Source of the DNA: Alphaproteobacteria bacterium
GTDB lineage: Bacteria; Pseudomonadota; Alphaproteobacteria; Rs-D84
Length of the DNA stretch: 37,637 nucleotides
Direction: 5' to 3'
Assembly (NCBI GenBank): GCA_009782315.1
Contig: WRJH01000003.1
Coordinates: 1-37,637 of the forward strand
The notes under the pieces are model-generated. The model saw nothing but the letters and a program-made list of their open reading frames with translations, had not been told where the DNA came from and searched no databases. Positions 1 to 18,097 of the stretch are shown in pieces (position 1 is the first letter of the stretch; every line of letters starts with the position of its first letter). A program made the translations under genes and the position numbers.

Positions 1-200
1 AGACGGCTCATAAGTTGCTCGACCGTCTCGATGGCGGGCTTCATCACAGCCACGTCTTTTTTTGTCGATTCCGACTGATACAATATCAGTAGGCGGTTCA
101 GGAAATCCCCCTTGTTGTCGAAATCGCTCCTATCGGATAGTTCATTGAATAACGCCTTGACCTCATCGCTTGCCCGGATTGCCAGAGGATTGTCTGCCAT
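1..200 (-). CDS. Hypothetical protein, 3'-truncated by the window edge; possible ribbon-helix-helix N-terminus
   Basis: Manual translation from ATG at 200: MADNPLAIRASDEVKALFNELSDRSDFDNKGDFLNRLLILYQSESTKKDVAVMKPAIETVEQLMSR..., open to the edge; GAAGGGGG RBS and consensus promoter upstream. Confidence 0.7.
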   Translation of the reverse strand, partial: MADNPLAIRASDEVKALFNELSDRSDFDNKGDFLNRLLILYQSESTKKDVAVMKPAIETVEQLMSR

Positions 201-219
201 TTCAAAAGCCCCCTTCTAT

Positions 220-302
220 GTAAACATCTAATAACAGTGTTTACAGTATGTTTACTTGTATTTTTATGTTTACATTATATATCCATCTTCGAGCAAAGTC
301 AA
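220..302 (-). promoter_or_regulatory. Sigma70 promoter with four TGTTTAC boxes
   Basis: TTGACT (302-297), 17 nt, TATAAT (279-274); TGTTTAC at 238, 249, 267 and inverted at 220. Confidence 0.75.
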
Positions 303-342
303 AAGAAAAATTAAAAAACAAAAAAATACGAATCCGGGCGAA

Positions 343-882
343 TTATTTACGTCTGCGAATCCAATGAAAAACATATAAAGCAACGCCTATGCAAATAAAA
401 ATATCGGCGAAATTAAATGCCGGCCAATGATACCCCGCGTAATGAAAGTCCAAAAAGTCTATCACGGCGCCGAATCGTATGCGGTCTACCAGATTTCCAA
501 CGGCGCCGCCGATGATAAGGGCAAGCGATATGCGTTCCAACCGGCCGGGCGCGCGCAAAAGGACATGTCCGAAAAACCCGATGATTGCGGCGGTGATTAC
601 GACGATTGCAACCGGCGCCGCTTCGCCCAATGCACGGAACAAAGAAAACGACGTTCCTGGATTCCAAGTGAAAACAATATTGAAAAAATTGGTCACGCGC
701 GCCATCAGATAGGGATATGGAACCAGATTGAACGCCCGCCCGAACGCCGGCACGGAACCGGTCAAGAGATACAAAATATATCCCTTTGCAATCTGGTCGA
801 CAAGGACCAACACAAGGCATAAGGCACAAGGCATAAGGCATATGCGTTTTGTATTTGCCATAATTTTTTTCAACGACTTCAT
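343..882 (-). CDS. lspA: Lipoprotein signal peptidase II
   Basis: DQIAK, NPGTSFS, GGAVGNLVDR, VIDFLD, WPAFNFAD motifs. Confidence 0.97.
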   Translation of the reverse strand: MKSLKKIMANTKRICLMPCALCLVLVLVDQIAKGYILYLLTGSVPAFGRAFNLVPYPYLMARVTNFFNIVFTWNPGTSFSLFRALGEAAPVAIVVITAAIIGFFGHVLLRAPGRLERISLALIIGGAVGNLVDRIRFGAVIDFLDFHYAGYHWPAFNFADIFICIGVALYVFHWIRRRK

Positions 883-948
883 ACCTTGTCCTTTATGTGC
901 GACATTTCGACAATTTTTTATGCCTTATGCCCTATGCCTTATGCCTTA
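811..948. repeat. Inverted pair of heptamer arrays AAGGCAT / ATGCCTT
   Basis: Arms 811-842 (in lspA N-terminus) and 918-948 (contains tig stop). Confidence 0.92.
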
Positions 949-2207
949 AAAATTTCGTCCGGCTTTACCGTTTTTTCTTTTATCTTTGCCTGCGCGATCA
1001 TGGCGTCCAACGCCTTTTGTTCGAAAAGCATTCCGCGCATCATGGAAACCGCGTTCGGATTTTTGTTATAGAATTCGAAAACCTGCTGCGGGTTCGGATA
1101 TCCCGCCGCCTCTTTCCAGATTGTTTTCTGCAAATCTTCGTTTGTGACTTTGACATCGTTCGCGCTGCCCCATTCCGCCAGAACCAGGCCCAGTTTCACG
1201 CGGCGTTCGGCGTCTTTCATTTCTTTCTTTTCGTCGAATGCGACGCCTTTGCTTGTCGCTTCCCTTTTCGCCATGTCGAATTCCTGGGACACCAAAGTTT
1301 CAGGGATTTCCATTTTCACCTTGTCCGCCAGCATGTCCAAAAGCTCGTTCCGCATTTCGCGGCGCGCGGCGTCTTCGTACTGTTCCGCCAGTATGCGTTT
1401 TATGTGTTCGCGCAAATCGGCGGCGGATTCCCGGCCGACTTCTTTGGCAAAGGCATCGGACAGTTCTGGCAGAATGGATTTCCGAATTTCATGTATTTCG
1501 ATTTCAAACTTTGTCTTTTGCCCGGCCAGATTTGGCGCGTGATAGTCTTTCGGAAATGTGACGTCGATATCAAACTTGTCGCCCGTTTTATGGCCGACGA
1601 TTTTTTCTTCGAATCCGGGTATGAAAGACCCGCTGCCCAGGACCAGGCGATGCTTTTTCGCCTCTCCCCCTTCGAACGGTTCGTTTCCTAAAAACCCTTT
1701 GAAATCAATGACGGTAACGTCGCCGTTTTGGGCCTTGTATCCGGCGTCCTGCATTTCGAACGTCGCGCGGGATTTCCGCAGGTTGTCCAAAGATTTTTCA
1801 ATTTCGCTTTCCGGCACTTCGGCGATTTTTTTCGTAATTGTGAACCCCGACAATTCGATTTTCGGCAGCGCCGGCAGTACGTCGAATTCGATTGAGTACT
1901 CAACATCCTGTCCGCGCGCGAATTTCGTTATATCGGCCTTTGGCGCGCCGGCCAGGCGCAGATTCTTTTCCTTTGCATAGGCATCCATATCCGCGTTCAT
2001 CAGCTTGTCGACGGCGTCGGCATGCGCGGCGTCGCCGTATTTCTGTTGCAGAATATTCATCGGAATTTTGCCCGGACGAAATCCCGGTATTTTCGCCTTT
2101 TCGCCGTATTTGGCCAGTATTTCACAGGCAGATTTCTGTATTTCATCGGCGGTCAGCAAACCCGCGATATGATAATGCAAATCTTTGATTTTTTCTTTCT
2201 TGAACAT
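939..2207 (-). CDS. tig: Trigger factor
   Basis: IPGFRPGKIP ribosome-binding motif; FKBP domain (IDFKG, LGSGSFIPGFEE, VTFPKDYHA). Confidence 0.98.
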   Translation of the reverse strand: MFKKEKIKDLHYHIAGLLTADEIQKSACEILAKYGEKAKIPGFRPGKIPMNILQQKYGDAAHADAVDKLMNADMDAYAKEKNLRLAGAPKADITKFARGQDVEYSIEFDVLPALPKIELSGFTITKKIAEVPESEIEKSLDNLRKSRATFEMQDAGYKAQNGDVTVIDFKGFLGNEPFEGGEAKKHRLVLGSGSFIPGFEEKIVGHKTGDKFDIDVTFPKDYHAPNLAGQKTKFEIEIHEIRKSILPELSDAFAKEVGRESAADLREHIKRILAEQYEDAARREMRNELLDMLADKVKMEIPETLVSQEFDMAKREATSKGVAFDEKKEMKDAERRVKLGLVLAEWGSANDVKVTNEDLQKTIWKEAAGYPNPQQVFEFYNKNPNAVSMMRGMLFEQKALDAMIAQAKIKEKTVKPDEIFKA

Positions 2208-2310
2208 ATAAACGCCCCTTTATTTCAGCCCGCCCATTATAGTGTCAAATTGCCGGATTGCAACTTTTTTATACTTTACACAAGGGGCCCTTTTTCGGTA
2301 CATTATGGAT

Positions 2311-3390
2311 ATGAGAAAACTGCTTGCTCTATGCTCTATGCTCTATGCTCTTGCGCCGCTGGCGGCGCACGCGTCCGAATACCGCGCGGCGATTGTCGCG
2401 GACATGGATACCGGCGCGATATTGTTCCGCGACCGCGACGAAGAATTGAACTATCCGGCCAGCCTTACCAAAATAATGACGCTTTATCTGACGTTCGACG
2501 CGCTGGAAAGCGGGCGCCTGCACCTTTCCGACCAACTGATAGTATCCGCGGCCGCGGCAAATGCGCCGCCTGTGAAACTGGGCCTGGCGGCGGGTTCGAA
2601 AATTTCCGTCGACGACGCGATAAAGGCGGTCGCGGTGCACAGCGCCAACGACGTCGCGCGCGTATTGGCCGAAAATCTGCGCGGCGGGCGCGAGGCTACC
2701 TTTGCATCAATGATGACGGACGTGGCGAACCAAATCGGTCTTTCCCAGACTAATTTTGAAAACGCGTCGGGACTTCCCGACGACGACCATCTGTCGTCCG
2801 CGCGGGATATCGCGCTGCTGGCCATCGCGATTCACCAGCATTTTCCGGGGTATTGGAAATATTTCGGAATACGGAATTGGACATACGGCGGCCGGACTTA
2901 TACGAACGGGAATAAATTGCTGGGCAACTATGCCGGCGCGAATGGCATGAAGACCGGATTTACGAACAGCGCGCGCTATTGCTTGGTCGCAACGGCGGCA
3001 CGCGACGGCAAGAATATTGTGACGGTTGTTTTGGGCGCGCCTAACCGGGATGTCCGTCTGAACGCCTCGCGGAAATTGCTGGACCGCGCTTTCGGAACGG
3101 AAAGCCGGGAATTGAAAATCGAAGACCCGGACGAACAAACCGCTGTGCAAAAACCGAAACCTGTTTCCAGCGGCGGCGGCAAATCGGGGGTACAATTCGG
3201 CGCATTCGGCAGTCGGAACGCCGCAACCGAACAGGCAAAAAAAGTCCAAAAATACACCGGCATTGTACCAAAAATAGAACAGACTGGGGGCATGTTCCGC
3301 GTCCGGGCTTACGGACTATCGGCGACCGCGGCGGACGGGGCGTGCAAAAAATTCCGCGACCAGAAACTGGATTGTTTTATAATCAAATGA
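2311..3390 (+). CDS. D-alanyl-D-alanine carboxypeptidase (peptidase S11) with C-terminal SPOR-like domain
   Basis: PASLTKIMT (SxxK), SAND (SxN), KTG; VQFGAF SPOR-like tail; start placed at MRKLL (2305 also possible). Confidence 0.92.
   Translation: MRKLLALCSMLYALAPLAAHASEYRAAIVADMDTGAILFRDRDEELNYPASLTKIMTLYLTFDALESGRLHLSDQLIVSAAAANAPPVKLGLAAGSKISVDDAIKAVAVHSANDVARVLAENLRGGREATFASMMTDVANQIGLSQTNFENASGLPDDDHLSSARDIALLAIAIHQHFPGYWKYFGIRNWTYGGRTYTNGNKLLGNYAGANGMKTGFTNSARYCLVATAARDGKNIVTVVLGAPNRDVRLNASRKLLDRAFGTESRELKIEDPDEQTAVQKPKPVSSGGGKSGVQFGAFGSRNAATEQAKKVQKYTGIVPKIEQTGGMFRVRAYGLSATAADGACKKFRDQKLDCFIIK
2325..2351. repeat. Heptamer array (TGCTCTA)n within signal peptide
   Basis: About 4 units encoding ALCSMLYAL. 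Confidence 0.9.
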
Positions 3391-3983
3391 ATTCGAAAAT
3401 AGAAAAATTAATCAAACAATTCGCAAAGCTGCCGCGCGTCGGCGGCCGCGCGGGTCAGCGGATTGTCCTGGGGCTTTTACAGGATAAAACCGGAAAATCG
3501 GCCGCCCTTGCGGCCGCATTGATTGATGCGGCGGAAAGCATCAAACCATGCGCGACCTGCGGCTGTTTGACCGAAAACAATCCTTGCGAATTCTGCCTTG
3601 ATGCGGGCCGCGAAAATGGCCAGCTGTGCCTGGTTCGGGATTTGGGCGACGTCTGGACATTGGAAAAATCGGGGGTGTTCCGCGGCCGGTACCATATTGT
3701 CGGCGGACTTTTGTCGGCGGCGACGGGAACGACGCCCGCCGATTTGAATATCGAAAATATCCCTTTGCGAATTGCGGCGGAAAACATTTCCGAAATTATT
3801 TTCGCATTGCCGAATACGGTCGAAGGCAAAACGACCCAGCATTTCATAATTAACAACTTGCAATTATCAATTAACAATTTGCAATTCACTGAATTGGCGT
3901 CGGGCGTGCCGCTGGGCGGCGATTTGGATTATATAGACGACGGCACATTAAATATAGCTTTCGGAAACAGAAAACAGATATGA
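3387..3983 (+). CDS. recR: Recombination mediator RecR
   Basis: HhH LPRVGGRAGQR, CxxC...CxxC zinc finger, TOPRIM, GVPLGGDLDYID; ATGA overlap with upstream stop. Confidence 0.96.
   Translation: MNSKIEKLIKQFAKLPRVGGRAGQRIVLGLLQDKTGKSAALAAALIDAAESIKPCATCGCLTENNPCEFCLDAGRENGQLCLVRDLGDVWTLEKSGVFRGRYHIVGGLLSAATGTTPADLNIENIPLRIAAENISEIIFALPNTVEGKTTQHFIINNLQLSINNLQFTELASGVPLGGDLDYIDDGTLNIAFGNRKQI
3848..3889. repeat. Degenerate heptamer array (AATTNNC)6 in recR
   Basis: aattaac aacttgc aattatc aattaac aatttgc aattcac; encodes INNLQLSINNLQF. Confidence 0.8.
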
Positions 3984-4861
3984 AAAACCCGTCTTTCGAC
4001 TTTCGACTTTCGACTTTCGACTCACTGGCGGCTCTGCCGCCTGTTTCCGAAATGATGCGCGCCGCGGGACTAGAGCCCAAAAAGCAATTCGGCCAGAATT
4101 TTTTATTCGATTTGAATCTGACCGGAAAGATAGCGCGCGCTGTTCCAAATATCGAAAATTCAACCGTTGTCGAAGTGGGACCGGGACCTGGCGGACTTAC
4201 CCGCGCGCTGCTTTTGGACGGCGCCCGCAAAGTCATCGCCATCGAAAAAGATAAAACAACCGCGCCGATTTTGGAACAAATCGCGGCGGCGGATGGGCGG
4301 TTGGAAATCATATTTGCGGACGCGTTGAAATTCGATTTTGCCCGGCTTGGGAAGATTTCCATCTGTTCCAATCTGCCCTATAACGTCGGCACGGAATTAT
4401 TGATTCGCTGGCTGCACGATATGGAAAATATTTCGTCCATGACATTGATGTTTCAACGCGAAGTTGCGGAACGAATTGTTGCCGCGCCCGGCACGGAACA
4501 TTACGGCCGCCTGTCGGTTTTGACATCGCTTTTAGCGGACGCAAAAATATTATTCGATGTTCCGAATACGGCGTTCGTACCCAGGCCGAAAGTTCAATCG
4601 GCGGTTGTCCAAATCATTCCGAAAAATGTAGGGGCGCGCACCCACCCCGCGAAATCTTTGATTTCGCCGGGACCCGGGGGAAACGCGCCCATAGATAAAA
4701 TCGAAAAACTTACTGCGAAACTTTTCGGCCAGCGCAGAAAGATGATTCGCGGAATCCTGCCCGGCGCCCTCTGGGAACAATTCGGGCTTTCAGGCACGGA
4801 AAGGGCCGAAGAATTAACACCTGAAAAATTTGCCGAAATCGCCGCCGCAAATGTGATATAA
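3980..4861 (+). CDS. rsmA: 16S rRNA adenine dimethyltransferase KsgA/RsmA
   Basis: KKQFGQNFL, VEVGPGPGGLT, NLPYNV, MFQREVAERI, FVPRPKVQS. Confidence 0.97.
   Translation: MKNPSFDFRLSTFDSLAALPPVSEMMRAAGLEPKKQFGQNFLFDLNLTGKIARAVPNIENSTVVEVGPGPGGLTRALLLDGARKVIAIEKDKTTAPILEQIAAADGRLEIIFADALKFDFARLGKISICSNLPYNVGTELLIRWLHDMENISSMTLMFQREVAERIVAAPGTEHYGRLSVLTSLLADAKILFDVPNTAFVPRPKVQSAVVQIIPKNVGARTHPAKSLISPGPGGNAPIDKIEKLTAKLFGQRRKMIRGILPGALWEQFGLSGTERAEELTPEKFAEIAAANVI
3994..4021. repeat. Heptamer array (TTTCGAC)4 in rsmA N-terminus
   Basis: Four perfect units encoding FDFRLSTFD. Confidence 0.95.
4628..4690 (+). repeat. GTAG-type REP-like element in frame in rsmA
   Basis: 63 nt, 60/63 identical to the reverse complement of 13161-13223. 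Confidence 0.92.
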
Positions 4862-4882
4862 TATCTGCAAAAGAGAGAGAAA

Positions 4883-6586
4883 ATGAATCTATCCATCCTT
4901 GTCATATTGGGCGTGGCTTTCGCGCTGGTCTATTTGCTGCGCGTGGCGCATGTCGGAACTTTAATCGCATTCCTGTTCGCCGGAATCGTCGCGGGGCCTT
5001 ACGGCCTGGGGCTTTGGGAATTAACCGACACCTGGTCGTTTCTGGGAGAAATAGGAATTATATTTTTATGGTTCAGTATGGGCCTGGAACTGAACACGCG
5101 GCGATTGTGGCAAATGCGCGATACGATATTCGGATTCGGCGCGGCCCAGGTTCTGGCGGTTGCGGTAATGTTGTTTCCGCTTTTGTTCGGCATTACGCCG
5201 TGGGGGATTTTGCCCGTTATTATGGTGTGCCTTTTGCTTTCCATGTCGTCCAGTTCAAGTGATTTGGATCTGCTTGCGGAACGGAATGAATTACAGACTA
5301 CATTGGGCCGGCAAAGTTTTTCGATTCTGCTGTTCCAGGACCTTTTGGCCATACCGCTTATCGCGATGGTTCCGATTTTCGCCGGGAAACAGTTTAATCT
5401 GGGCGCCGAAGTTATCGATATAACTGTCATGTCCGTCGGCCTTATTATCGGTGTCGTGATTGTCGGCCGGCTGGTTTTGCAACCGCTGATGCGGCACGTG
5501 TCGCGGTTGAAATCCAAAGAAGCGTCGCTGATTGCGATATTCCTGAATATCATCGGCTGGGTCGTGGTTATGGAATTCGTGGGACTGCCGCCGGCAATCG
5601 GCGCGTTCCTTGGCGGTATGTTGATGAGCGAGACGCTGTACAGACATCAAGTCCAATCCGAAATCGCGCCATACCGGATTTTGTTTTTATCGTTCTTTTT
5701 CATTGCGTTGGGCATGGGGTTGAATCTGCCTATGCTGGCCGCGAACTGGTGGCTGGTTGCGGGCGGCGCAATCCTGTTGGTCGGCGTAAAATTCATCGCG
5801 ATATATGCCGTCGCGCGCCTGCGCCGGGTTCATCGCCGCGAAGCGTTCCTGATTGCGCTGATATTGGCCCAGGGCGGCGAATTCGGTCTGTTGATATTGC
5901 AGATGATGCGGCAAAACGGGATAGAGGCGATACCGTTCCAACATTCCGAAATCCTGATGTCCGTCATAGTGGTGTCGATGATTATGACGCCTATATTGCT
6001 TGCCATATACGACCGGCTGTATGAATCTGGCAAACTGGTATCCGGCGCCCGCGCGCGCAAGGTAAATATCGGCGCGACCGAAAAACCCGAAGTGATTATA
6101 TGCGGATTTGGGCGCGTCGGGCAAACGATTGCGAAAATGATGGAATCCCAGAATATCCCGTATGCGGCCATAGACATGAATGTCGACGCGGTTGTTCGCG
6201 GCCGGAACGAAGGCTTTAACGTATTTTACGGCGACACTGCAAAGGCGGCTGTGCTGTCCGAAATCGGCCTGGCGCCGCGTCGGACTCGCGCGGTTGTGAT
6301 TGCGCTTGATAACGCCAGCATTGCGAAAAGCACGGTCCGCGCGGTAAAACAGGCGACGCCGAACGTCCGCATATTCGCCCGCGCAAGAAATCTGGAAGAA
6401 GCGCTGATATTGCAAAGAGAGGGGGCAAAGCTTGCATTGCCTGAAACGATTGAATCGTCGTTCATGCTTGGCGAACAGGTTTTGGAAACCCTTGGCATAA
6501 AACAGGATAAAATAGACATTCTGTTGTCCCGTCTGCGCGGCGACAATTACGCGACTCTTTCGAAAATCCTGGACCGGAATAAATAA
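4883..6586 (+). CDS. Kef-type CPA2 cation/proton antiporter with TrkA-N domain
   Basis: Multi-TM N-terminus, LLFQD, LAQGGEF, ICGFGRVG Rossmann motif. Confidence 0.93.
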   Translation: MNLSILVILGVAFALVYLLRVAHVGTLIAFLFAGIVAGPYGLGLWELTDTWSFLGEIGIIFLWFSMGLELNTRRLWQMRDTIFGFGAAQVLAVAVMLFPLLFGITPWGILPVIMVCLLLSMSSSSSDLDLLAERNELQTTLGRQSFSILLFQDLLAIPLIAMVPIFAGKQFNLGAEVIDITVMSVGLIIGVVIVGRLVLQPLMRHVSRLKSKEASLIAIFLNIIGWVVVMEFVGLPPAIGAFLGGMLMSETLYRHQVQSEIAPYRILFLSFFFIALGMGLNLPMLAANWWLVAGGAILLVGVKFIAIYAVARLRRVHRREAFLIALILAQGGEFGLLILQMMRQNGIEAIPFQHSEILMSVIVVSMIMTPILLAIYDRLYESGKLVSGARARKVNIGATEKPEVIICGFGRVGQTIAKMMESQNIPYAAIDMNVDAVVRGRNEGFNVFYGDTAKAAVLSEIGLAPRRTRAVVIALDNASIAKSTVRAVKQATPNVRIFARARNLEEALILQREGAKLALPETIESSFMLGEQVLETLGIKQDKIDILLSRLRGDNYATLSKILDRNK

Positions 6587-6725
6587 TTTCTGATTTAGGA
6601 TTTCGGATTTCTGATTTGGAGATTGATTGAAATACATACATTAAAATCAAACGATTTTTATGACTTATATATGAAGTATCGGCGCGCTCCAAATCCTAAA
6701 TCAGAAATCATATATCAGAAATCCT
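6586..6725. repeat. Inverted pair of heptamer arrays ATTTNNG / CNNAAAT
   Basis: Arms 6586-6620 (starts in the antiporter stop codon) and 6688-6725. Confidence 0.88.
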
Positions 6726-6734
6726 ATTTTCCCC

Positions 6735-6762
6735 TTGCAAACGCCCAAATACCCCTTATAAT
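6735..6762 (+). promoter_or_regulatory. Sigma70 promoter
   Basis: TTGCAA-N16-TATAAT upstream of AAGGA RBS. Confidence 0.6.
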
Positions 6763-6791
6763 ATTTGTCAACTTGACCCAAAAGGAATGAC

Positions 6792-7664
6792 ATGGCAATA
6801 TTCATCGGCGGACGCACGCCAAAGAAAAAAGATTGGAAACATTCGGCGGCAAATATGCTGTCCTTGAAAACCGGCCCCGAATACAATGAAAACCCCATGC
6901 CGGGTATGGTGTTTCAATATATCTTGGACAATAAGAATGTCGGCAAAGCCGGCGCGGCCGGGGCCTTTGTTTACAACTATCTGCCGAAAATAAAAAGATA
7001 TGCAGACGGAACCTTTGAACTTATCGACCCCCATTATCTGGACACCTTCAAAAGCGGCGCCGGACGCGACCAACACGTCGCCATAATCTGCGACGACGGC
7101 TATGGCAAGCCTGTCTATGACACCCAATATTTAATCGGATGTATCCCAACCATAGTGGATTTGAATTTTCACTATGATGTTAAAGAAAAGAAAAAACTGC
7201 AAGAAAACCATGAAAAAGAAAGCAAAGCGGACTTTGACCATGACATACTCAACCTGGACCATTATGCCGGCGCCAGAATCGTGTCTATGGACAAAGAAAC
7301 GGTCGATATTCTGGGTCGCGACCCATATCAATTGCAACGCAAATACAATTGGGATAACGTGATTGTCAATCATGGACTGCACAGTATCTGGTTCACCAGA
7401 TTGGGCGTCAATTCTATTTTCGATTTCAAATATCGCGATGGCATTGAAAACGAAGCTACGTACGAATCAAAGCGCGAAATAGTTGCTGGCCTTGCGGCGG
7501 AATTCACATTGAACAATTACAAAATCTATGACAACGAAAACGTTTATGTGCCTCAACGCGTATTTCGCGACTATTGGGCGGAACATTTCGAACATGAAAA
7601 ACTAATATCTCTTGACCAGGCGCTGGCCATCCTGGGTCTGCAAACCCAAAGGCCCGGCAAATAA
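6792..7664 (+). CDS. Hypothetical protein
   Basis: 290-aa ORF with promoter, RBS and terminator; no family recognised. Confidence 0.8.
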   Translation: MAIFIGGRTPKKKDWKHSAANMLSLKTGPEYNENPMPGMVFQYILDNKNVGKAGAAGAFVYNYLPKIKRYADGTFELIDPHYLDTFKSGAGRDQHVAIICDDGYGKPVYDTQYLIGCIPTIVDLNFHYDVKEKKKLQENHEKESKADFDHDILNLDHYAGARIVSMDKETVDILGRDPYQLQRKYNWDNVIVNHGLHSIWFTRLGVNSIFDFKYRDGIENEATYESKREIVAGLAAEFTLNNYKIYDNENVYVPQRVFRDYWAEHFEHEKLISLDQALAILGLQTQRPGK

Positions 7665-7692
7665 AAAAATCCGCCTTTCGGCGGATTTTTTT
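7663..7692. terminator. Bidirectional intrinsic terminator
   Basis: AAAAAAATCCGCC-TTTC-GGCGGATTTTTTT between convergent genes. Confidence 0.9.
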
Positions 7693-7963
7693 ACTTACGC
7701 AATCCCAATTTTTTAATCAGTGCTTCATAATTGGAAACGCTGTGTCTTTTGATATAGGCAAGCAGTTTTTTGCGGCGGTTGACCATTTTCAAAAGGCCGA
7801 ATTTCGAATGCTGGTCTTTCGGCATTTTTTTCATATGTTCGGTCAGGTTGATGATGCGTTCGGTCAGAACCGCAACCTGTGCCGGGGCGCTGCCGCCGTT
7901 GTCCTTGTCGGACGATTTGTATGCTTTGATAAGCTCTGTTTTTTTTGCTTTTACAATCGACAT
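7691..7963 (-). CDS. rpsO: 30S ribosomal protein S15
   Basis: QVAVLTERIINLTEH, KDQHSKFGLLKMVNRRKKLL, LGLRK; follows truB. Confidence 0.98.
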   Translation of the reverse strand: MSIVKAKKTELIKAYKSSDKDNGGSAPAQVAVLTERIINLTEHMKKMPKDQHSKFGLLKMVNRRKKLLAYIKRHSVSNYEALIKKLGLRK

Positions 7964-7983
7964 TGTTTGCTCACTTTGTTCGC

Positions 7984-8018
7984 AGTGACTAGTAATTAGT
8001 GACTAGTGACTAGTTATT
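7984..8018. repeat. Heptamer array (AGTGACT)n containing the truB stop
   Basis: agtgact agtaatt agtgact agtgact agttatt. Confidence 0.85.
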
Positions 8019-9049
8019 ATTCGCTTTGGCCGCAGCTGTCCGTTTATAATTTCGCCGATTCCAATGAACCCGCCGTTATTATAGATACGCCGCAAACCAT
8101 CGCCGTTACTATCGATAAATCCGCCGTTTTTGAACAGTTCCGCGTCTTTATCGCCGATTTCCAAAACCAGAATGTCGTCCAGTCCGAAATCCACCGGTTT
8201 CAGGTATTCCAAAACCGGTTGGTGTTCCGCCTTCGCTTCCGCTCCGGCGCGACAGGCATTATTATACAGATTTTCCAGAAAATCAAGCGCCGCGGCATCT
8301 TTTATTTCAAAATTATGGGTGCGCGTCCGGCGAATGCTGTCGCAAGTGCAGATGAAACCGTTTCCCGTTTTCCGTTTCCCGTTTTCCGCATTATTAATTT
8401 CATCGACGATTTGTTGCGCCAAGGCCCGCACATAAGTCCCGGCGGAACACTGGACCCTGAACTCGGTCGATGTAGGGGCGTGCCGCGCACGCCCGGGCGC
8501 AAGCATTGCGCCCCTACATACTTCCAATTCATATATATTAACCCGTCGCGCGGGCACTTCAAATTCCGCGCCGCGCCGTGCCAATTCGTATGCCCGGCGG
8601 CCACCGATATGCACGGCGCTGTATGCGGGCGGCGTTTGTTCTATTTCGCCAACCAGCACGGACAATGCGGCCGATATCTGCTCACCCGACGGCACACTGT
8701 CGTTTTGTTCCATAACCTTTCCCGTAATATCATCTGTGTCTGTCTTGATTCCCCATTGAACAGAAAATTCATACTCTTTTTGACATCTGTGCTCTCTGCT
8801 CTCTGCTCTATGCTCTAAATACGGTATCATCTTGGTCGCCTCGCCCAGCGCGATTGGCAGAACACCGGACGCCATGGGGTCCAAAGTTCCCAAATGTCCG
8901 AATTTTTTTATCCCGAACATGCGCGCGACGCGGCCGCCGGCCGCGCGACTGGTCATGCCGGACGGTTTATCCAAAATAATCCACCCGCCTTCGTCCGCCT
9001 TCACTTCGTTACGGCGCGACTTCGGCGCGGCAAGCCCGCTTTTGCTCAT
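8003..9049 (-). CDS. truB: tRNA pseudouridine(55) synthase with multiple repeat-derived insertions
   Basis: LDKPSGMTS, GHLGTLDPMASGVL, QTPPAYSA, CSAGTYVR; start placed at ATG 9049. Confidence 0.96.
   Translation of the reverse strand: MSKSGLAAPKSRRNEVKADEGGWIILDKPSGMTSRAAGGRVARMFGIKKFGHLGTLDPMASGVLPIALGEATKMIPYLEHRAESREHRCQKEYEFSVQWGIKTDTDDITGKVMEQNDSVPSGEQISAALSVLVGEIEQTPPAYSAVHIGGRRAYELARRGAEFEVPARRVNIYELEVCRGAMLAPGRARHAPTSTEFRVQCSAGTYVRALAQQIVDEINNAENGKRKTGNGFICTCDSIRRTRTHNFEIKDAAALDFLENLYNNACRAGAEAKAEHQPVLEYLKPVDFGLDDILVLEIGDKDAELFKNGGFIDSNGDGLRRIYNNGGFIGIGEIINGQLRPKRIITSH
8227..8257 (+). repeat. CCSCCTTCRC...GG.GGRCAGG-type palindromic repeat in truB
   Basis: CCGCCTTCGCTTCCGCTCCGGCGCGACAGGC; related to 8985, 21472, 28483. 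Confidence 0.7.
8358..8388. repeat. Heptamer array (CCGTTTY)4 in truB
   Basis: Encodes ENGKRKTGNG. Confidence 0.9.
8472..8517. repeat. GTAG-type REP doublet in truB
   Basis: GTAGGGGCGTGCCGCGCACGCCC + GGGCGCAAGCATTGCGCCCCTAC; encodes CRGAMLAPGRARHAPT. Confidence 0.9.
8786..8817. repeat. Heptamer array (TCTNTGC)n in truB
   Basis: Encodes EHRAESREHR. Confidence 0.9.
8985..9035 (+). repeat. Nested CCGCCTTC-type palindromic repeat in truB N-terminus
   Basis: CCGCCTTCGT[CCGCCTTCACTTCGTTACGGCGCG]ACTTCGGCGCGGCAAG. Confidence 0.7.
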
Positions 9050-9050
9050 A

Positions 9051-11579
9051 TCATTCACCAAACAGGGACATTTGTTTTTTTGCGGCCAATTCCGGCTCTT
9101 TAACTTTTTTCACAATAGACGGCTCTTCCGTACCAGGCACAACAACCGGCGGCGGCGCTCTATCTATGCTCTGTTCTCTATGCTCTCTGCTCTCCAGTTG
9201 TTGCAGAATCCGCTCTGCGGATTCTACAACACTGGCTGGCATTCCGGACATTTTTGCGACATGTATTCCGTATGAAGACCCCGCAACCCCCGGCATAATT
9301 TTATGCAAGAATACGATTTCGTTATTGTGTTCCGCAACCTGGACCGTCAGATTTGTAATCGAATTCCGCGTATCCGAAAGCGCGGTCAATTCGTGATAAT
9401 GCGTCGCGAACAGCGTGCGCGGCGCGGCATTGTCGACAAATTCAAGAACGGCCTGGGCGATGGCCATGCCGTCGAACGTTGCGGTTCCGCGACCTATTTC
9501 GTCGAATATGATGAACGATTTTTCGGTCGCGCGGTTTAATATGTTCGCGGTTTCCGTCATTTCCACCATGAAAGTGGACTGTCCCGCGGCCAGATTATCC
9601 GACGCGCCAACGCGGCTGAACAGCTGGTCGCATATTCCAATGCTTGCGGAATTCGCGGGCACGAAAGACCCCAAATGGGCCAAAACGACAATCAGCGCGT
9701 TCTGTCGCAGATATGTGGATTTTCCGGCCATGTTCGGCCCGGTTAAAAGGGCGATGCGTTTTTCATTCAAATCGCAATCGTTTTTTACAAACTGGTCGCC
9801 GCGCCCGCGCAGCATGCATTCGACAACCGGGTGGCGGCCGCCGGTAACGGCGAATTCGCCGCCGTCCGTCATATTCGGCCGGGTCCAGCTATATTCTTCC
9901 GCGGCCAGTGAAAGCGAAAGCCATACGTCGGCATCGGCCAGCAAATCGGCGACATACATCAAATCGTCCGCCGCCGCGCGGATATGTTCGATTAATTTCG
10001 CGATGATTTCCGCCTCTATCGCGGCCGCTTTTTCGGCGGCGCCGCGAACTTCGTTGTCCAATTCGATAAGGCGCGCGGTTGTAAACCGGACGTTTCCGGC
10101 CATCGTCTGGCGGTGGATATAGGTATCCTTTGCATCGAACAAAGCGCCCGCCTTTGCCGCCGGCACTTCGATATGATACCCCAGTATGTTGTTGTATTTG
10201 ATTTTCAAAGTATTGATTCCGGACGCGGCCGCGTATTCGGATTGCAGGGACGCGATGACTTCCTTTGCGCCATGGGCCAGCGAATTCATATTGTCCAGCG
10301 CCGTGTCGTATCCGCCCCGTATGATGCCGCCGTCGCGAAAAAATGCCGGGCATTCGTCCGACAGCGCCAGGCGCAGTTCCGCGGAAAGCCCGTCCATAGT
10401 ATTTATATTTTCGAAACACGCGGACTGATTTGAATCAAGTTTGCGTCCGCATATTTTGAATTCCGGCAATCGCGCGATAAATTCGGCGCATCCTTTCAAA
10501 TCGCGTGGGCACCCGCGCCCGGATAACAGGCGCCCCAGCGCCCGCCCGATATCCGATGTCTTGGATAACAGTGCGCCCAGTTCCGCGGCGACATGACTGT
10601 TTAACAACAGGTGCCCGATGTGTTCCTGGCGGCTGCGGATTTCGGAAATATCGCCCGAAAGTTCGCGCAAGTATGCGCGCAGTTTCCGCGCGCCCGCGGC
10701 GGTTTTCGTCTTGTCCAGAATGTCCAATAATGTGGCGCCGCCGGACTGCATCGGCTCGTCAATTTCCAAGGACCGCCATGTCGCGGCATCGACCAACAGC
10801 CGGGCGCCCGCGCCCAGACGGTACGGCGCGCGGAACGACAATTTCGCGCCCCGCTGGGTCTGTTCCAAATACCCGGCCAGCAAATTGACCGACATATTGA
10901 CGGATGTTTTGTCGATTCCGAATATAGTCCGAACGGTATCCGATATGTTTTCGCGTTCGAAAATCCTGTCGTAAAGCGGCGTCGTGCGAAATGCAGTTCT
11001 TATGCGTTTTATATCCGGCAATTCCGCCGCGCTTTCGGGGTAAATTATTTCGGACGGATTTATACGAACCATTTCGTCGAACAGTCCGTCCGACAGTTCT
11101 CCAACGAAAAATTCGCCCGTGGATATGTCGCATCCGGCGATATGGAATAATGAATTTTCCGGCACGATGGCGACCAGAAAGTTTGATTTTTTCGGGCTTA
11201 ACAGATTTTCATCCGTCAAAGTTCCGGCGGTCAGAACGCGGACGACGCCGCGCTTGATTTGTTTCGCGCCTCTCGCCTTTGCCTCTTCCGGCGATTCCAA
11301 TTGTTCGGCGATGGCGACGTTATACCCTGCGCGCACCAGCCGCCCCAGATAATTTTCCGCCGCATGCCACGGTATTCCGCACATGGGGATTTCACCGCCC
11401 GACGCATCGGTTCCGCGACGGGTCAGGACCAGTTCCAGCGCGCGCGACACGACAACGGCGTCTTCGAAAAAGCATTCGTAAAAATCGCCCAACCGGAACA
11501 ACAGCACGGCCCCCGGACATTCGGATTTAATGTCCAGGTATTGCTGCATAACGGGCGTAAGGGCTGGTTTGATTGGCAT
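9051..11579 (-). CDS. mutS: DNA mismatch repair protein MutS
   Basis: TPVMQQY, FRLGDFYECF, GRHPVVE, TGPNMAGKSTYLRQ, STFMVEM, DEIGRGT, SYGIHVA. Confidence 0.98.
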   Translation of the reverse strand: MPIKPALTPVMQQYLDIKSECPGAVLLFRLGDFYECFFEDAVVVSRALELVLTRRGTDASGGEIPMCGIPWHAAENYLGRLVRAGYNVAIAEQLESPEEAKARGAKQIKRGVVRVLTAGTLTDENLLSPKKSNFLVAIVPENSLFHIAGCDISTGEFFVGELSDGLFDEMVRINPSEIIYPESAAELPDIKRIRTAFRTTPLYDRIFERENISDTVRTIFGIDKTSVNMSVNLLAGYLEQTQRGAKLSFRAPYRLGAGARLLVDAATWRSLEIDEPMQSGGATLLDILDKTKTAAGARKLRAYLRELSGDISEIRSRQEHIGHLLLNSHVAAELGALLSKTSDIGRALGRLLSGRGCPRDLKGCAEFIARLPEFKICGRKLDSNQSACFENINTMDGLSAELRLALSDECPAFFRDGGIIRGGYDTALDNMNSLAHGAKEVIASLQSEYAAASGINTLKIKYNNILGYHIEVPAAKAGALFDAKDTYIHRQTMAGNVRFTTARLIELDNEVRGAAEKAAAIEAEIIAKLIEHIRAAADDLMYVADLLADADVWLSLSLAAEEYSWTRPNMTDGGEFAVTGGRHPVVECMLRGRGDQFVKNDCDLNEKRIALLTGPNMAGKSTYLRQNALIVVLAHLGSFVPANSASIGICDQLFSRVGASDNLAAGQSTFMVEMTETANILNRATEKSFIIFDEIGRGTATFDGMAIAQAVLEFVDNAAPRTLFATHYHELTALSDTRNSITNLTVQVAEHNNEIVFLHKIMPGVAGSSYGIHVAKMSGMPASVVESAERILQQLESREHREQSIDRAPPPVVVPGTEEPSIVKKVKEPELAAKKQMSLFGE
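9157..9193. repeat. Heptamer array (CTATGCT)-like in mutS C-terminus
   Basis: Encodes ESREHREQSIDRA. Confidence 0.85.
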
Positions 11580-11589
11580 TGGAATTTTT

Positions 11590-11817
11590 TTATTTTTCTG
11601 TGTTCAGTTTTTCTATTTTCAATTCCGCCTCTTTCAAGACCTGTTCCAAATAGGCTTTCAGTTTCATACCCTGTTCATATGCCTTTACGGAATCGGCCAG
11701 CGGCAGCGCGCCGGATTCCATCTTTTTGACCAGTTCCGAAAGCTGGCCCAGCGCCTGTTCGAAAGACATTTCGTGGTTGGTGGCTGGTGGCTGGTGGTTC
11801 GTATTTTCTTTTTCCAT
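11590..11817 (-). CDS. xseB: Exodeoxyribonuclease VII small subunit
   Basis: SFEQALGQLSELVKKMESGALPLADSVKAYEQG; start at MEKEN after AAGGAAG. Confidence 0.95.
   Translation of the reverse strand: MEKENTNHQPPATNHEMSFEQALGQLSELVKKMESGALPLADSVKAYEQGMKLKAYLEQVLKEAELKIEKLNTEK
11771..11802. repeat. Heptamer array (TGGTGGC)-like in xseB N-terminus
   Basis: Encodes TNHQPPATNHE. Confidence 0.9.
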
Positions 11818-11893
11818 AAAACTTCCTTTTTGATTTATTAAATATATAAAAATCAAATCGTAAAATCAAATCATTTTTGTTCATTGTGCCGAC

Positions 11894-11952
11894 TGTTTGC
11901 GTTTTCGGGGGTGAAGTGTATTGAAATACATGAATCCCCGAAAACGCAAACA
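11894..11952. repeat. Long intergenic palindrome (17-bp perfect stem plus inner TGTATT/AATACA stem)
   Basis: TGTTTGCGTTTTCGGGG ... CCCCGAAAACGCAAACA. Confidence 0.8.
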
Positions 11953-11972
11953 CCGCGGACCGATGGGAAAAT

Positions 11973-11994
11973 AAAACCGCGCAATTGCGCGGTT
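11973..11994 (-). terminator. Putative mreB terminator
   Basis: Palindrome AACCGCGCAATTGCGCGGTT directly after the stop, short U-tract. Confidence 0.6.
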
Positions 11995-11996
11995 CA

Positions 11997-13235
<1,239 letters not shown>

Positions 13236-13580
13236 TCAACCCAGCGCCGCCTTTGCCTTCGCCAACAGCGACAATGCGGATTCTATGGATTCCGGGTCCG
13301 GCTTTTTTTTGCCCGCCGCGCGCGCTTTGCCTTTACTGTCCGGCAAATTGCCGCCTTCCAGCAGTTTACGCACGCCGGCGATGGTATATCCCTGGTCGTA
13401 CAACAGGCCCTTTATGCTTTCTATTTTGGCGGCGTCTTCATCGCGGTAATACCGGCGACCCCCGGCCCCGGTTACGGGCCGTATGGCGCCATCGAAAGTC
13501 TTTTCCCAGTACCGCAGGGTATGCGCCGGCACGTTGATGCGCTTGGAAAGTTCGTTAATGGAAATAAATGGCTCTGTCAT
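13236..13580 (-). CDS. MerR-family HTH transcriptional regulator
   Basis: SINELSKRINVPAHTLRYWE, GGRRYY, LLYDQGYTIAGV. Confidence 0.93.
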   Translation of the reverse strand: MTEPFISINELSKRINVPAHTLRYWEKTFDGAIRPVTGAGGRRYYRDEDAAKIESIKGLLYDQGYTIAGVRKLLEGGNLPDSKGKARAAGKKKPDPESIESALSLLAKAKAALG

Positions 13581-13584
13581 CTTG

Positions 13585-13612
13585 CAGTTGTTAGTTGTTA
13601 GTTGTCAGTTGT
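13585..13612. repeat. Heptamer array (YAGTTGT)4 containing the gyrA stop
   Basis: cagttgt tagttgt tagttgt cagttgt; encodes QLTTNN*. Confidence 0.9.
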
Positions 13613-16305
13613 TCGCTGTCTTCGTCTTCTTTCTCTATCGCCGTTGCGGAAATGACCTTTTCATCCGCGGCGGTGCGGAACAATGTGACGCCCGCGGTCG
13701 CGCGGCCGGCAATTCGGACATCCGCGATTGGCGTTCTGATAATCTTTCCACCGTCTGTCACCATCATCACGTCGTGGTCGGAATCGATTGGGAAACTGCC
13801 CGCGACGGCGGTGTTTTTCCCGCCCAGTTTTATGTTCGCGAATCCCATTCCGCCGCGATGGGTTATCCGGTATTCATAAGACGATGTGCGCTTTCCGAAT
13901 CCGTTTTCGGAAATGGTCAGTATGAACTGTTCGCGCAGCGCCATTTCGGCCATCTTCGCATCGTCCAGAACGACTGCGTTCGCCGCATTGTCTTCGGCAT
14001 CCGGCGCGCCTTCTTCCTCTTCGATTCCGGTTGCGGCGCGGCGCAGCGCGCGCGATTGTTTTACATATGCGGCGCGAATATCCGGCGTGTCTTCGTTATG
14101 CGACAGCATGGCCATGCCGATAATGCGGTCGTCTTTGGCAAGTTTGATTGCGCGCACGCCCGTCGATGCTCTGGATTGGAACACGCGGATTTCCGTGACG
14201 GGGAATCGTATGCAGCGGCCGCGGTAAGTGGACAGGAAAACGTCTTCGTTTTCGTTGCACAGCGCGACGGAAACAAGGCTTTCGCCCTCTTCCAATTTCA
14301 TTGCGATTTTGCCGTTGGCGCGTATGGATTCGAAATCTTCAAAGGTATTTCTGCGTATTGTTCCCATGGATGTCGCGAACATCAGATGCTGTCCGGCGGC
14401 GTCTTCCGACACCGGCAGTATGGCGGTGATGGTTTCGCCATTATCCAAAGGCAACAAATTGACCAGCGGGCGTCCCTTTGCCGCGGCGGCCGCCTCTGGC
14501 AATTTATATGTTTTAAGGCGATAGCACATGCCCTTGCTGGAAAAGAACATCAACGGAGTATGCGTATTCGCGACAAACACGTTTGTAACGTAATCGTCGT
14601 CTTTGGTCGTCATGGCATTGCGCCCCTTGCCGCCGCGCCGCTGCGCACGGTAAGTGTCCAACGCAACCCGTTTGATATACCCGGTGTTGGTGACAGTGAC
14701 CACCATGTCTTCGCGGGCAATCAGGTCTTCGATGTCCATGTCGATTTCCGCGTCGGAAATCTGGGTGCGGCGCGCGCGGCCGAACTGGTCACGGATTGCC
14801 GATGTTTCGGTGCGTATTATGTCGGATATCTTTTCGTTGCTGCCCAAAATTTCCAAAAGCCCTTTAATCACGGCGCCCAATTCGACCAAATCGCCGTGAA
14901 TCTTGTCGCGTTCCAATCCGGTAAGGCGGTGCAGTTGTAATTCCAATATCGCCTTTGCCTGGTCTTCGGACATATGAAACAGACCGTCTTTGTATTCCGA
15001 ATTCGGATCGTCTATCAGGCGGATATAGGATTCGATGTCGGACGCTTTCCATCCGCGGGCGACCAACGCCTGGCGCGCGGCTTCCGGGTTTTCGCTTCCC
15101 TTGATAAGCGCGATTACTTCGTCCAGATTGCCCACGGCGACGGAAAGTCCCAAAAGGGTGTGCGCGCGGTTGCGGGCCTTGTTCAGTTCGAATATGGTGC
15201 GGCGGCGGATTACCTCGCCTCTGAATTCGATAAATGCGTCCAAAACTTTGCGCACATTGAACAGCATGGGCCGCCCGTTGTTCAGCGCCATCATATTGAC
15301 GGGAAAAGACGACTGCAGCTGGGTATATTGGTACAGCTGGTTTAAGACAACGTCGGGGATGGCATCGCGTTTTAATTCGATGACGACCCGGACTCCGTCG
15401 CGCGATGATTCATCGCGGATTTCGGAAATCCCTTCGACGCGTTTTTCTTTGGACAATTCGACGATTTTGATGACCAGCTGGGATTTGTTTACTTGGTACG
15501 GCAATTCGTCGATGATGATTGCCTGGTTGTCCTTGAATTCTTCAAAATGGGTTTTCGCGCGGACGATAACGGAACCGCGACCCATTGTGTGCGCCTTGAA
15601 AGCGCCGGCGCGTCCCATCATTATGCCGCCGGTCGGGAAATCGGGTCCGGGAATGATTTGGAACAATTCTTCGTCGGAAATGTCGCGCCGGTCCAGGACG
15701 GCCAGCGTTGCATTGCATACTTCGGTCAAATTATACGGCGGAACGTTGGTCGCCATGCCGACGGCGATTCCGGCGCCGCCGTTGACCAGGAAGTTGGGAA
15801 ATTTCGCGGGCAGAACGCGCGGTTCTTGAAAACCGCCGTCATAGTTCGGCATCCAATCGACGGTGTCTTTGTCCAAATCGTCCATCAAATGGGACGCAAG
15901 GCGGGTCAGGCGCGCTTCGGTATAGCGCTGTGCGGCGGGATTGTCGCCGTCCATGGAACCGAAATTTCCCTGGCCGTCGACCAGCATTTCGCCCATGGAA
16001 AAATCCTGGGCCATTCTTGCCATGGCTTCGTATATAGCGCCTTCGCCGTGCGGGTGGTATTTACCCATGACGTCGCCGGATACGCGGGCGGATTTAACGT
16101 GTTTTCCACCGGCCTTTGCAATATCGTTCATAACGTACATGATTCGGCGGTGTACGGGCTTGCATCCGTCGCGCACATCGGGCAGCGCGCGGTCGACGAT
16201 AACGCTCATCGCATAGTCCAGAAACGACGATTGCATTTCGGTTTCGATGGCGGATTGGGGGATTGCGGGGCTTTGAATTTCGTTGTTATTTTGTTCGTCT
16301 GACAT
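13591..16305 (-). CDS. gyrA: DNA gyrase subunit A
   Basis: RALPDVRDG, GKYHPHG, AAQRYTE, GyrA-box QRRGGKG. Confidence 0.98.
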   Translation of the reverse strand: MSDEQNNNEIQSPAIPQSAIETEMQSSFLDYAMSVIVDRALPDVRDGCKPVHRRIMYVMNDIAKAGGKHVKSARVSGDVMGKYHPHGEGAIYEAMARMAQDFSMGEMLVDGQGNFGSMDGDNPAAQRYTEARLTRLASHLMDDLDKDTVDWMPNYDGGFQEPRVLPAKFPNFLVNGGAGIAVGMATNVPPYNLTEVCNATLAVLDRRDISDEELFQIIPGPDFPTGGIMMGRAGAFKAHTMGRGSVIVRAKTHFEEFKDNQAIIIDELPYQVNKSQLVIKIVELSKEKRVEGISEIRDESSRDGVRVVIELKRDAIPDVVLNQLYQYTQLQSSFPVNMMALNNGRPMLFNVRKVLDAFIEFRGEVIRRRTIFELNKARNRAHTLLGLSVAVGNLDEVIALIKGSENPEAARQALVARGWKASDIESYIRLIDDPNSEYKDGLFHMSEDQAKAILELQLHRLTGLERDKIHGDLVELGAVIKGLLEILGSNEKISDIIRTETSAIRDQFGRARRTQISDAEIDMDIEDLIAREDMVVTVTNTGYIKRVALDTYRAQRRGGKGRNAMTTKDDDYVTNVFVANTHTPLMFFSSKGMCYRLKTYKLPEAAAAAKGRPLVNLLPLDNGETITAILPVSEDAAGQHLMFATSMGTIRRNTFEDFESIRANGKIAMKLEEGESLVSVALCNENEDVFLSTYRGRCIRFPVTEIRVFQSRASTGVRAIKLAKDDRIIGMAMLSHNEDTPDIRAAYVKQSRALRRAATGIEEEEGAPDAEDNAANAVVLDDAKMAEMALREQFILTISENGFGKRTSSYEYRITHRGGMGFANIKLGGKNTAVAGSFPIDSDHDVMMVTDGGKIIRTPIADVRIAGRATAGVTLFRTAADEKVISATAIEKEDEDSEQLTTNN

Positions 16306-16323
16306 AATTTTTCCTGTTGATTT

Positions 16324-16418
16324 TGTGGCTGGTGGCTTGTGCTGGTGACTTGTATTTTTGGAATTGTTTCAACAAAAAACCAACCCCACGAATCACCAGC
16401 ACGAACCACCAACCACGA
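16324..16418. repeat. Inverted pair of degenerate TGGTGGC / GCCACCA-type arrays upstream of gyrA
   Basis: Arms 16324-16353 and 16386-16418. Confidence 0.82.
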
Positions 16419-16560
16419 CCTGTTTTTCGCCCTGAAAATATAGCAAAAAACGCCCCCAAAGGTCAAGGAAATCATGCATGTTTTTTGCAGGTTCAGGCTA
16501 TGAAAAATATATTGACAAACGTATATATTTACTTAACAATAAGGGCTCAAGGAATATAAC

Positions 16561-16668
16561 ATGTTCTGGTCCATATGGGGTCTTTTTGCGCAAATCATAG
16601 CCGCACTGATGGTGTACGGCATTGCCAATTATTTTATCCAATTGGCGTTCGGCGTTAAAAGCAAATAA
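16561..16668 (+). CDS. Small hydrophobic protein (35 aa)
   Basis: MFWSIWGLFAQIIAALMVYGIANYFIQLAFGVKSK*; AAGGA RBS; TTGACA at 16512. Confidence 0.6.
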   Translation: MFWSIWGLFAQIIAALMVYGIANYFIQLAFGVKSK

Positions 16669-16730
16669 AAACTTGCAAACGGCGGATTCTTGTGATTAAA
16701 TGGCCGGACAAAGAGTAAAGGTATAATACT

Positions 16731-16883
16731 ATGGCAACAAAAAGAACCTATCAGCCGTCGAATTGCCGCCGCGTAAAAACGCACGGGTTTCGCGAAAAGA
16801 TGGCCACAAAATCCGGCCGCGACGTTTTGAACCGTCGCCGCGCGACCGGGCGCAAGCGCCTGGCCGTTTCCGCCGCAAGATAA
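16731..16883 (+). CDS. rpmH: 50S ribosomal protein L34 (absent from the ORF track)
   Basis: [50 protein letters not shown]. Confidence 0.97.
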
Positions 16884-16910
16884 AAACGCCGCTTTCGCGG
16901 CGTTTTTTTT
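16882..16910. terminator. Bidirectional intrinsic terminator
   Basis: AAAAACGCCGC-TTTC-GCGGCGTTTTTTT. Confidence 0.9.
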
Positions 16911-17097
16911 ACATGTACAATCGCATTACATACAAATGGGGCAGTTTTTTCGGAATATATTTTCCGGATTCAAAATCCCGATATTCGGCCAATTTAATTC
17001 TTAACCATTTGGCCATCTGTTCTTCTGATAATCTGGCGGACATGCGAATTTGTCGCACCCTGTCCCCGATTACGTTTGGGTAACTTTTGCCTTTCAT
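16909..17097 (-). CDS. Small XRE-family HTH protein
   Basis: IGDRVRQIRMSARLSEEQMAKWL...DFESGKYIP; GGAGAGAG RBS. Confidence 0.8.
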   Translation of the reverse strand: MKGKSYPNVIGDRVRQIRMSARLSEEQMAKWLRIKLAEYRDFESGKYIPKKLPHLYVMRLYM

Positions 17098-18096: not shown

Positions 18097-18097
18097 T

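Follow-up and report, generated by a model that had tools for sequence, protein, structure and literature searches.

How can a conserved enzyme gene hold several pieces of dispersed repeat DNA and keep its reading frame and its catalytic motifs? The question is raised by truB, which encodes a tRNA pseudouridine-55 synthase, in the 37,637-nt stretch analyzed here (contig WRJH01000003.1 of assembly GCA_009782315.1, positions 1 to 37,637; hereafter, the window). The genome (G000) belongs to an uncultured termite-gut alphaproteobacterium and is represented by an 815-kb assembly that is 88% complete. A preliminary description of the locus had attributed six segments of truB to repeats from three families. 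A codon alignment with the orthologue (L002) of the closest genome, G004 (686 kb), which is our reference for comparisons, showed extra or replaced sequence at all six places. The six places are insertions, and four of them are repeat-derived (three heptamer arrays and a hairpin doublet with GTAG ends), whereas the other two, previously taken for palindromes, are one-off insertions of 19 and 10 codons. The repeat-derived segments fall into two classes rather than three families: heptamer arrays built on three different units and a single hairpin family. We consider it probable that truB specifies an intact and potentially active enzyme carrying four repeat copies and two one-off inserts at places that tolerate them (Table 1).

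Six insertions in truB

Table 1. The truB gene and the insertions found in it and at its 3' end (ORF, open reading frame)
Feature	Position	Strand	Content
truB coding sequence	8003-9049	minus	348 codons and TAG stop; ORF 8003-9061, ATG at 9049
N-terminal insert	8990-9046	minus	19 codons directly after the ATG, SKSGLAAPKSRRNEVKADE; unique sequence, no repeat or palindrome
Site 1, heptamer array	8786-8816	minus	GAGCAKA x4.4 on the coding strand, AGAGCAT family; read EHRAESREHR
Site 2, GTAG hairpin doublet	8471-8518	minus	46-nt core 8472-8517 with flanking T and A, exactly 16 codons, CRGAMLAPGRARHAPT
Site 3, heptamer array	8358-8388	minus	(CGGAAAACGGGAAA) x2.2 on the coding strand; read AENGKRKTGNG
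Site 4, insert	8228-8257	minus	10 codons, ACRAGAEAKA, linker before the C-terminal domain; unique sequence, no palindrome
3'-end heptamer array	7984-8014	minus	ACTAGTC x4.4; last three codons (TSH), TAG stop and 19 nt of spacer before rpsO

The N-terminal insert is missing in G004 although the upstream sequence and the ATG are shared, and its mean occupancy among 59 aligned relatives is 0.07. At site 4, G004 and 10/10 other aligned relatives show a clean 30-nt gap (mean occupancy of 0.04 among the 59), and a comparable insert occupies this position in one metagenome protein, P0006. Neither supports the palindromes first reported at 8985-9035 and 8227-8257: no inverted repeat of at least 8 nt (seed 6) was found in 8975-9050 or 8215-8270, the predicted folds of the two inserts are no better than chance (z of -1.15 and -1.33, with 27/200 and 20/200 shuffles as good), and no second genomic copy of either was found, the best other blastn-short matches covering 18-19 nt (E of 0.12 or weaker) and 13 nt. 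The palindrome reading was rejected on these grounds; the insertions of 19 and 10 codons are real nonetheless.

Tandem Repeats Finder (TRF) placed the heptamer arrays at 7984-8014, 8358-8388 and 8786-8816, each with 4.4 copies of a 7-nt unit, close to the spans of the preliminary description (7984-8018, 8358-8388 and 8786-8817). The site 1 array differs in sequence from its counterpart in G004, is 2 codons longer than it and 7 codons longer than the 5-codon L003 baseline, and is identical over 27/27 nt to a copy on contig C2 (1143-1169). The site 3 array, with 100% matches at period 14, extends exactly 21 nt (7 codons) beyond G004 and is identical over 26/26 nt to contig C5 (16133-16158). At the 3' end, the truB-rpsO spacer measures 39 nt here versus 3 nt in G004. 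The GTAG doublet, reported from the start at 8472-8517, makes site 2 longer by 11 codons than in G004 and by about 14 than the baseline; its predicted fold, an outer stem enclosing two inner hairpins, has an energy of -34.3 kcal/mol (z of -4.33, 0/200 shuffles as good). In E. coli TruB the alignment is gapped opposite sites 1, 2 and 3, and the linker at site 4 is equally long.

The product has 348 aa, against a median of 303 among the 59 relatives and a usual length of about 290 aa in the clade. Four runs of at least two residues, 48 residues altogether, are occupied in fewer than 35% of the 59 relatives, and these runs are contained in, or overlap with, four of the six places first reported. 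Together with the G004 codon alignment, this distinguishes the segments from ordinary TruB sequence, as had been proposed. Roughly 45-58 residues of truB come from small DNA insertions that would be read through as protein.

The mutS stop precedes the truB ATG by 1 nt, the ATG context is identical in G004, and GGTGA lies 5 nt upstream of the ATG at 9049. A downstream in-frame GTG (codon 21 from this ATG) has no Shine-Dalgarno-like sequence. No known RNA family or tRNA was found in the truB region. The product matches the catalytic domain TruB_N (PF01509; E of 1.2e-46, 159.3 bits against a cut-off of 27.3) and the C-terminal TruB/PUA-type domain TruB-C_2 (PF09157; E of 3.4e-07, 30.5 bits against a cut-off of 21), and it matches the sequence of E. 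coli TruB (1r3f; E of 1.5e-40). The frame is kept and both motifs named in the preliminary description are intact, GHLGTLD being coded at 8879-8899 and CSAGTYVR at 8426-8449. In TruB enzymes, the catalytic Asp lies in GxxGxLDP, and conserved Tyr and Arg residues lie in KEY and GTYVR. The corresponding GHLGTLDP, KEY and GTYVR are all found in truB and are invariant across the 60 aligned sequences. The product is probably an intact, active tRNA pseudouridine-55 synthase, judging from its sequence and predicted structure, and we infer that the enzyme is still functional.

It could be argued that truB is superfluous and decaying and that its repeats mark relaxed constraint, since truB is dispensable in laboratory E. 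coli and here sits, with an unusual repeat load, in a small genome. We regard this as very improbable. The frame is open over all 348 codons, and 45 of the 45 clade-invariant columns are kept. Over 298 shared codons, dN/dS against G004 is 0.16-0.26, or about 0.2, with dS of about 1.1; the core of truB is under purifying selection. Identity to G004 (71% over shared columns, 64.5% by reciprocal-best-hit BLAST) is near the genome median of 70.4% (336 reciprocal best hits), and truB is retained in 38 of 41 related genomes. The sequence bears no apparent sign of decay.

A predicted structure shows where the inserts would lie. The AlphaFold (AF2) model, built on the 60-sequence clade alignment, has a mean pLDDT of 88.6, with 256/348 residues at 90 or higher. 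The structure that matches it best is 1k8w_A, a complex of E. coli TruB with RNA (E of 3.3e-33, TM of 0.87 normalized to the target), so the model has the TruB fold. Confidence drops below a pLDDT of 87 in seven 10-residue blocks (1-10, 11-20, 81-90, 181-190, 221-230, 261-270 and 271-280), which are the insert positions, and every remaining block reaches at least 87. The N-terminal insert scores 48-60, residues 81-90 score 67 and residues 181-190 score 54. The inserts therefore coincide with the low-confidence parts of the model; they are predicted to be disordered and to occupy chain ends and loops or linkers. A conserved enzyme can thus carry about 15% of foreign, repeat-derived length at six places with its predicted core fold and its signal of purifying selection intact.

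Two repeat classes across the genome

Both classes of repeat are dispersed through the assembly. Genome-wide gene calls are crude ORFs, start codons included, and the counts below are to be read in this sense. Arrays of period 7 number 379, compared with 5 in a mononucleotide shuffle, so tandem 7-nt units are dispersed far above chance, as in simple sequence repeats (SSRs) and in the short tandemly repeated repetitive (STRR) sequences of cyanobacteria, which are heptameric. Their modal length is 31 nt, and 117 distinct units occur. After merging (n = 393), 197 arrays (50%) are contained entirely in crude ORFs, compared with 87% of random 31-mers, and 161 of 740 crude genes contain at least one array. 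The GAGCAGA variant array found in truB also lengthens an unrelated gene (C2, 908-2059) by 7 codons. In the GAGCATA orientation, each translated copy shown has lost the TAG of a unit by a change of T to A or G, as an open frame requires. The array families are lineage-specific: AAATCAG forms 23 arrays in G000 and is outside the top 25 units of G004, whereas G004 commonly has ACTAGGC (11 arrays) and AATACCG (8), which are outside the 40 commonest units of G000.

The hairpin class, too, shows a lineage-specific expansion. GTAGGG..CCCTAC elements of at most 72 nt occur 42 times in G000, 16 of them at exactly 46 nt, compared with 1-5 in five shuffles and with 2 copies in the 686 kb of G004. Seventeen of the 42 lie inside crude genes. 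Ten in-gene copies have a G004 orthologue, and nine of these give a protein that is 4-17 aa longer at the insert.

The repeat load of truB was described earlier as an extreme case, which overstates its rank. With four family-derived segments, truB ties for second among the 740 crude genes (one gene has five and two others have four), and it is seventh by density; furthermore, the orthologue in the related genome G001 has four arrays. Under a uniform Poisson model, the load at this gene length has P = 5e-4, so repeat loading is clustered in few genes. The most loaded crude genes are C4 8027-10090 (688 aa), with five segments (four arrays and one GTAG doublet), and C2 25348-26055 (236 aa), with four arrays. 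Thus, truB is heavily loaded but not unique.

Proposed origin and turnover of the inserts

We propose that the four repeat-derived inserts are copies of repeats that litter the genome: three heptamer arrays of about 31 nt and one GC-rich hairpin doublet of 48 nt, bounded by GTAG/CTAC. These repeats may arrive as pre-formed copies by a copy-and-paste or repair-templated route. The array positions would be old slots, with the sequence of the unit replaced or re-homogenized over time. Only frame-preserving, stop-free events would survive, three heptamer units giving 21 nt or 7 codons and the doublet with its T and A giving 16 codons. The inserts would persist because of this filter and because they sit at two chain ends and at four loops or linkers whose length varies across the clade.

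Several observations weigh against this proposal. At arrays genome-wide, the difference in protein length from G004 is most often 0 aa (29/93), with a broad spread, and +7 aa was seen in 3/93; most arrays are thus not accounted for by simple insertion, and the rule that every array adds 7 codons was rejected because it fails genome-wide. Concerning a mobilizing enzyme, no match to Y1_Tnp (PF01797), RVT_1, DDE_3 or rve was found in the assembly, whose completeness of 88% is too low for this to show absence of a reverse transcriptase or a DDE/integrase enzyme driving the spread. Y1_Tnp was likewise found in 0/5 genomes of the genus, including genomes that are 97-98% complete, and 3/41 genomes of the family gave weak matches. 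We rejected spread by a REP-associated tyrosine transposase (RAYT), as in REPINs (doublets of repetitive extragenic palindromic [REP] sequences), because no Y1_Tnp was found in the genome itself or in the genus. In truB, the N-terminal 19 codons might be untranslated if the in-frame GTG is the start, and no RNA-derived match to 7900-9100 was listed in a check for expression. The placement of the inserts in surface loops, presumably away from the RNA, derives from low pLDDT, coil assignment and the length variation of relatives. Only two codons separate the end of site 1 from the conserved KEY motif that follows, and catalysis might be affected.

The assembly itself was evaluated by comparing positions 1-20000 of the window with Logan contigs of three termite-gut runs. 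No single listed contig bridges the GTAG element: contigs break inside it, and loose ends of other copies map there, as would be expected if the inserts were artefacts of a metagenome bin, mis-joined at repeats. We give this explanation hardly any weight. Contigs of the likely source run, made by a second assembler, reproduce 4661-8499 and 8489-13156 with no difference and overlap by 11 nt inside the element. A 312-nt contig from an independent study (run X3) is identical to 8170-8481, spanning sites 3 and 4 and reaching the GTAG element. In yet another run, the N-terminal insert contains a single-base variant, and every insert keeps the frame. No array length variants or indels, such as phase-variable contingency repeats show, were seen in the contigs of the three runs over these 20 kb, although contigs drop rare variants and those listed for run X2 leave truB uncovered.

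The relatives show how the array positions have behaved over time. Arrays occur in truB of G001 (four), G004 (two), G017 (two) and G011 (one), in the same loops and with other units. G004 has CCACACT x4 in the loop that follows DITGK (ORF 346-373), and its second array, a 14-mer x2.2 (ORF 535-565), sits where G000 holds the GTAG doublet. At site 1, the arrays of G000 and G017 begin directly after the same Leu codon, consist of 4.3 units of GAGCAKA and GAGAACA, respectively, and each exceed the baseline by 21 nt. Between truB and rpsO, the ACTAGTC array of G000 and the ACTGGTT x4.4 array of G001 agree in place and copy number, have a variant third unit in both cases, and differ by identical substitutions in every unit. 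Genome-wide, 110 in-gene arrays have an orthologue for comparison, and for 37 of them G004 also has an array at the corresponding position, often built on an unrelated unit; for internal arrays the figure is 15/64, compared with 2.0 +/- 1.3 under random placement. These comparisons suggest that array positions are conserved, long-standing slots with turnover of the unit rather than a one-way build-up, and the earlier idea of accretion appears too simple. That the same loops hold different units across genera bears on the origin and turnover of heptamer repeats, which are widespread in bacteria and unexplained.

The slot data fit slippage cycles, repeated copy-in or a rewriting process alike. 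In the first case, arrays would have grown in situ by replication slippage from a resident heptamer, contraction and re-expansion keeping them uniform and the frame permitting three-unit steps. This is possible, though considerably less likely than the arrival of pre-formed copies. It would account for sites 1 and 3 being an array-free orthologue plus exactly 21 nt, for GGGAACG in G004 where G000 has a GGAAACG/GAAAACG array, for GAGCAKA and GAGAACA at the same start point in G000 and G017, for the shared layout and parallel substitutions of the truB-rpsO arrays, and for the large number of distinct units; the idea that 7 nt favors polymerase slippage is also on record (PMC4679880). However, copies elsewhere match the truB arrays without a difference over 26-27 nt, the alternating 14-mer pattern included, and aligned slots are filled with unrelated units, such as AAATCAG in G000 against TGTCGCC, CAGTGCC or CCGAATA in G004. 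Lengths peak at 31 nt without the decay that slippage predicts, and the contigs of the three runs show no length variants, a weak point given the loss of rare ones.

A more speculative possibility, and a rather doubtful one, is that an unknown DNA-level process rewrites each loop slot to about 4.4 copies of the currently active heptamer family, by templated overwrite or resynthesis rather than by slippage or transposition. If so, the loop sequence of TruB and of many other proteins in this bacterial family would be renewed over and over, with position and length unchanged.

The recurrence of arrays at the same loops in several genera could also be taken as a sign of adaptation. The inserts would then provide new TruB surfaces for contacts with partners or RNA, or the repeats would act in the mRNA, controlling the mutS-truB-rpsO transcript as sites of pairing or protein binding. 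In the same direction, G000 and G004 share about 39 identical nt at one array of another gene despite a dS of about 1.1, and 76 of 125 neighboring array pairs are inverted with the same unit, suggesting that pairing matters elsewhere in the genome. We nevertheless consider adaptation unlikely for truB, where the peptides at a given loop are wholly different between species, the inserts are predicted to be disordered and the arrays are solitary, with no inverted partner nearby; G004, where it is array-free, and the 290-aa relatives manage without them.

The other gene's array is a case in its own right. The in-gene AGAGCAT array on contig C4 (9095-9129) and its flanks are the region of about 39 nt shared with the G004 orthologue, and to judge from the truB dS, this array is far more conserved than expected of neutral sequence.

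Comparison with known repeats and neighboring arrays

Rickettsia palindromic elements (RPEs) are about 100-150 nt long and sit in frame in protein genes. The analogy drawn in the preliminary description fits the GTAG element well: it is a dispersed hairpin repeat found inside conserved genes with the frame kept, apparently where the fold tolerates it (17/42 in crude genes), as far as open frames can tell. In contrast to RPEs, the element measures 46-48 nt, its host lives in the termite gut and most of the inserts are tandem heptamer arrays; the likeness is one of description. The truB gene is a further, heavily loaded case of selfish repeats inside genes, of the RPE-like kind already known, and it extends selfish DNA inside genes from palindromic elements to 7-nt tandem arrays, with a unit length that cannot be divided by three. 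Protein lengths are inflated by inserts of this kind, which also reduce identity scores and break contigs in metagenome bins.

The GTAG doublet also resembles REP and REPIN elements in its GTAG head, its GC-rich hairpins, its self-folding doublet and its lineage-specific burst (42 copies versus 2). Those elements are mobilized by RAYT transposases, and REPs are extragenic by definition. Here, no RAYT/Y1_Tnp was found in the assembly or the genus, and the 17 copies inside crude genes are not extragenic.

The in-gene repeat units of Borg elements are multiples of three. As with Borg repeats, which create disordered protein regions (PMC9879509), fast-evolving tandem repeats in ORFs would here add disordered segments; unlike them, the unit is 7 nt, the peptide repeats every 21 nt and the arrays are short (about 4.4 units). 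Among heptameric SSRs, published work describes abundant GGGAATC in Xanthomonas and GGGGAYT in Nostoc, with convergent pairs (70-75 in Xanthomonas) (PMC4692102), and TAACTGA in Beggiatoaceae (PMC4679880). The arrays described here share with them the 7-nt unit, mostly about four units per array, hundreds of dispersed copies, convergent pairs (76 in this genome) and some positions over stop codons. In contrast to those systems, which have one or two units per genome and are mostly intergenic, there are 117 units here, and half of the arrays are inside ORFs, including those of conserved enzymes. Our literature searches, supplementary files excepted, turned up no description of heptamer arrays translated within conserved enzymes, nor one of the repeats of this lineage.

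Paired arrays form a distinct pattern in the genome. Among the 125 neighboring pairs within 200 nt, 2 are direct, and in the 76 inverted same-unit pairs the spacer has a mode of about 45 nt and a crude gene start lies between or beside the arms in 49. AAGGCAT pairs have a conserved spacer that contains ATG. In the window, pairs occur at 811-842/918-948, 6586-6617/6691-6727, 20933-20962/21066-21103, 24186-24223/24292-24312, 26169-26201/26248-26275, 31059-31089/31162-31192 and 34410-34436/34460-34489.

Position within the protein depends on the orientation of the array. In the ATGCTCT orientation, 24/24 in-ORF AGAGCAT arrays fall within the first 40 residues (LCSMLYALCS after K/R), as do 17/20 AAGGCAT arrays (LCLMPYALCL), both counts resting on crude starts; examples in the window are 2325-2351, 811-842 and 31162-31192. 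From their sequence, these N-terminal arrays look like the cores of export signals. The opposite orientation yields internal hydrophilic loops in 7/7 cases.

Next to truB, the C-terminal end of mutS (minus strand) has an AGAGCAT-type array at 9163-9193, read LESREHREQSID, where G004 is 2 aa shorter. A hairpin with 15-nt arms (9199-9231, 93% complementary) lies just upstream of this array on the coding strand. At the far end of the window, where 5S and 23S rRNA were the only hits in the search for known RNA families and tRNAs, the 5S rRNA gene (37078-37192) and the 3' end of the 23S rRNA gene (37306-37637) lie on the minus strand.

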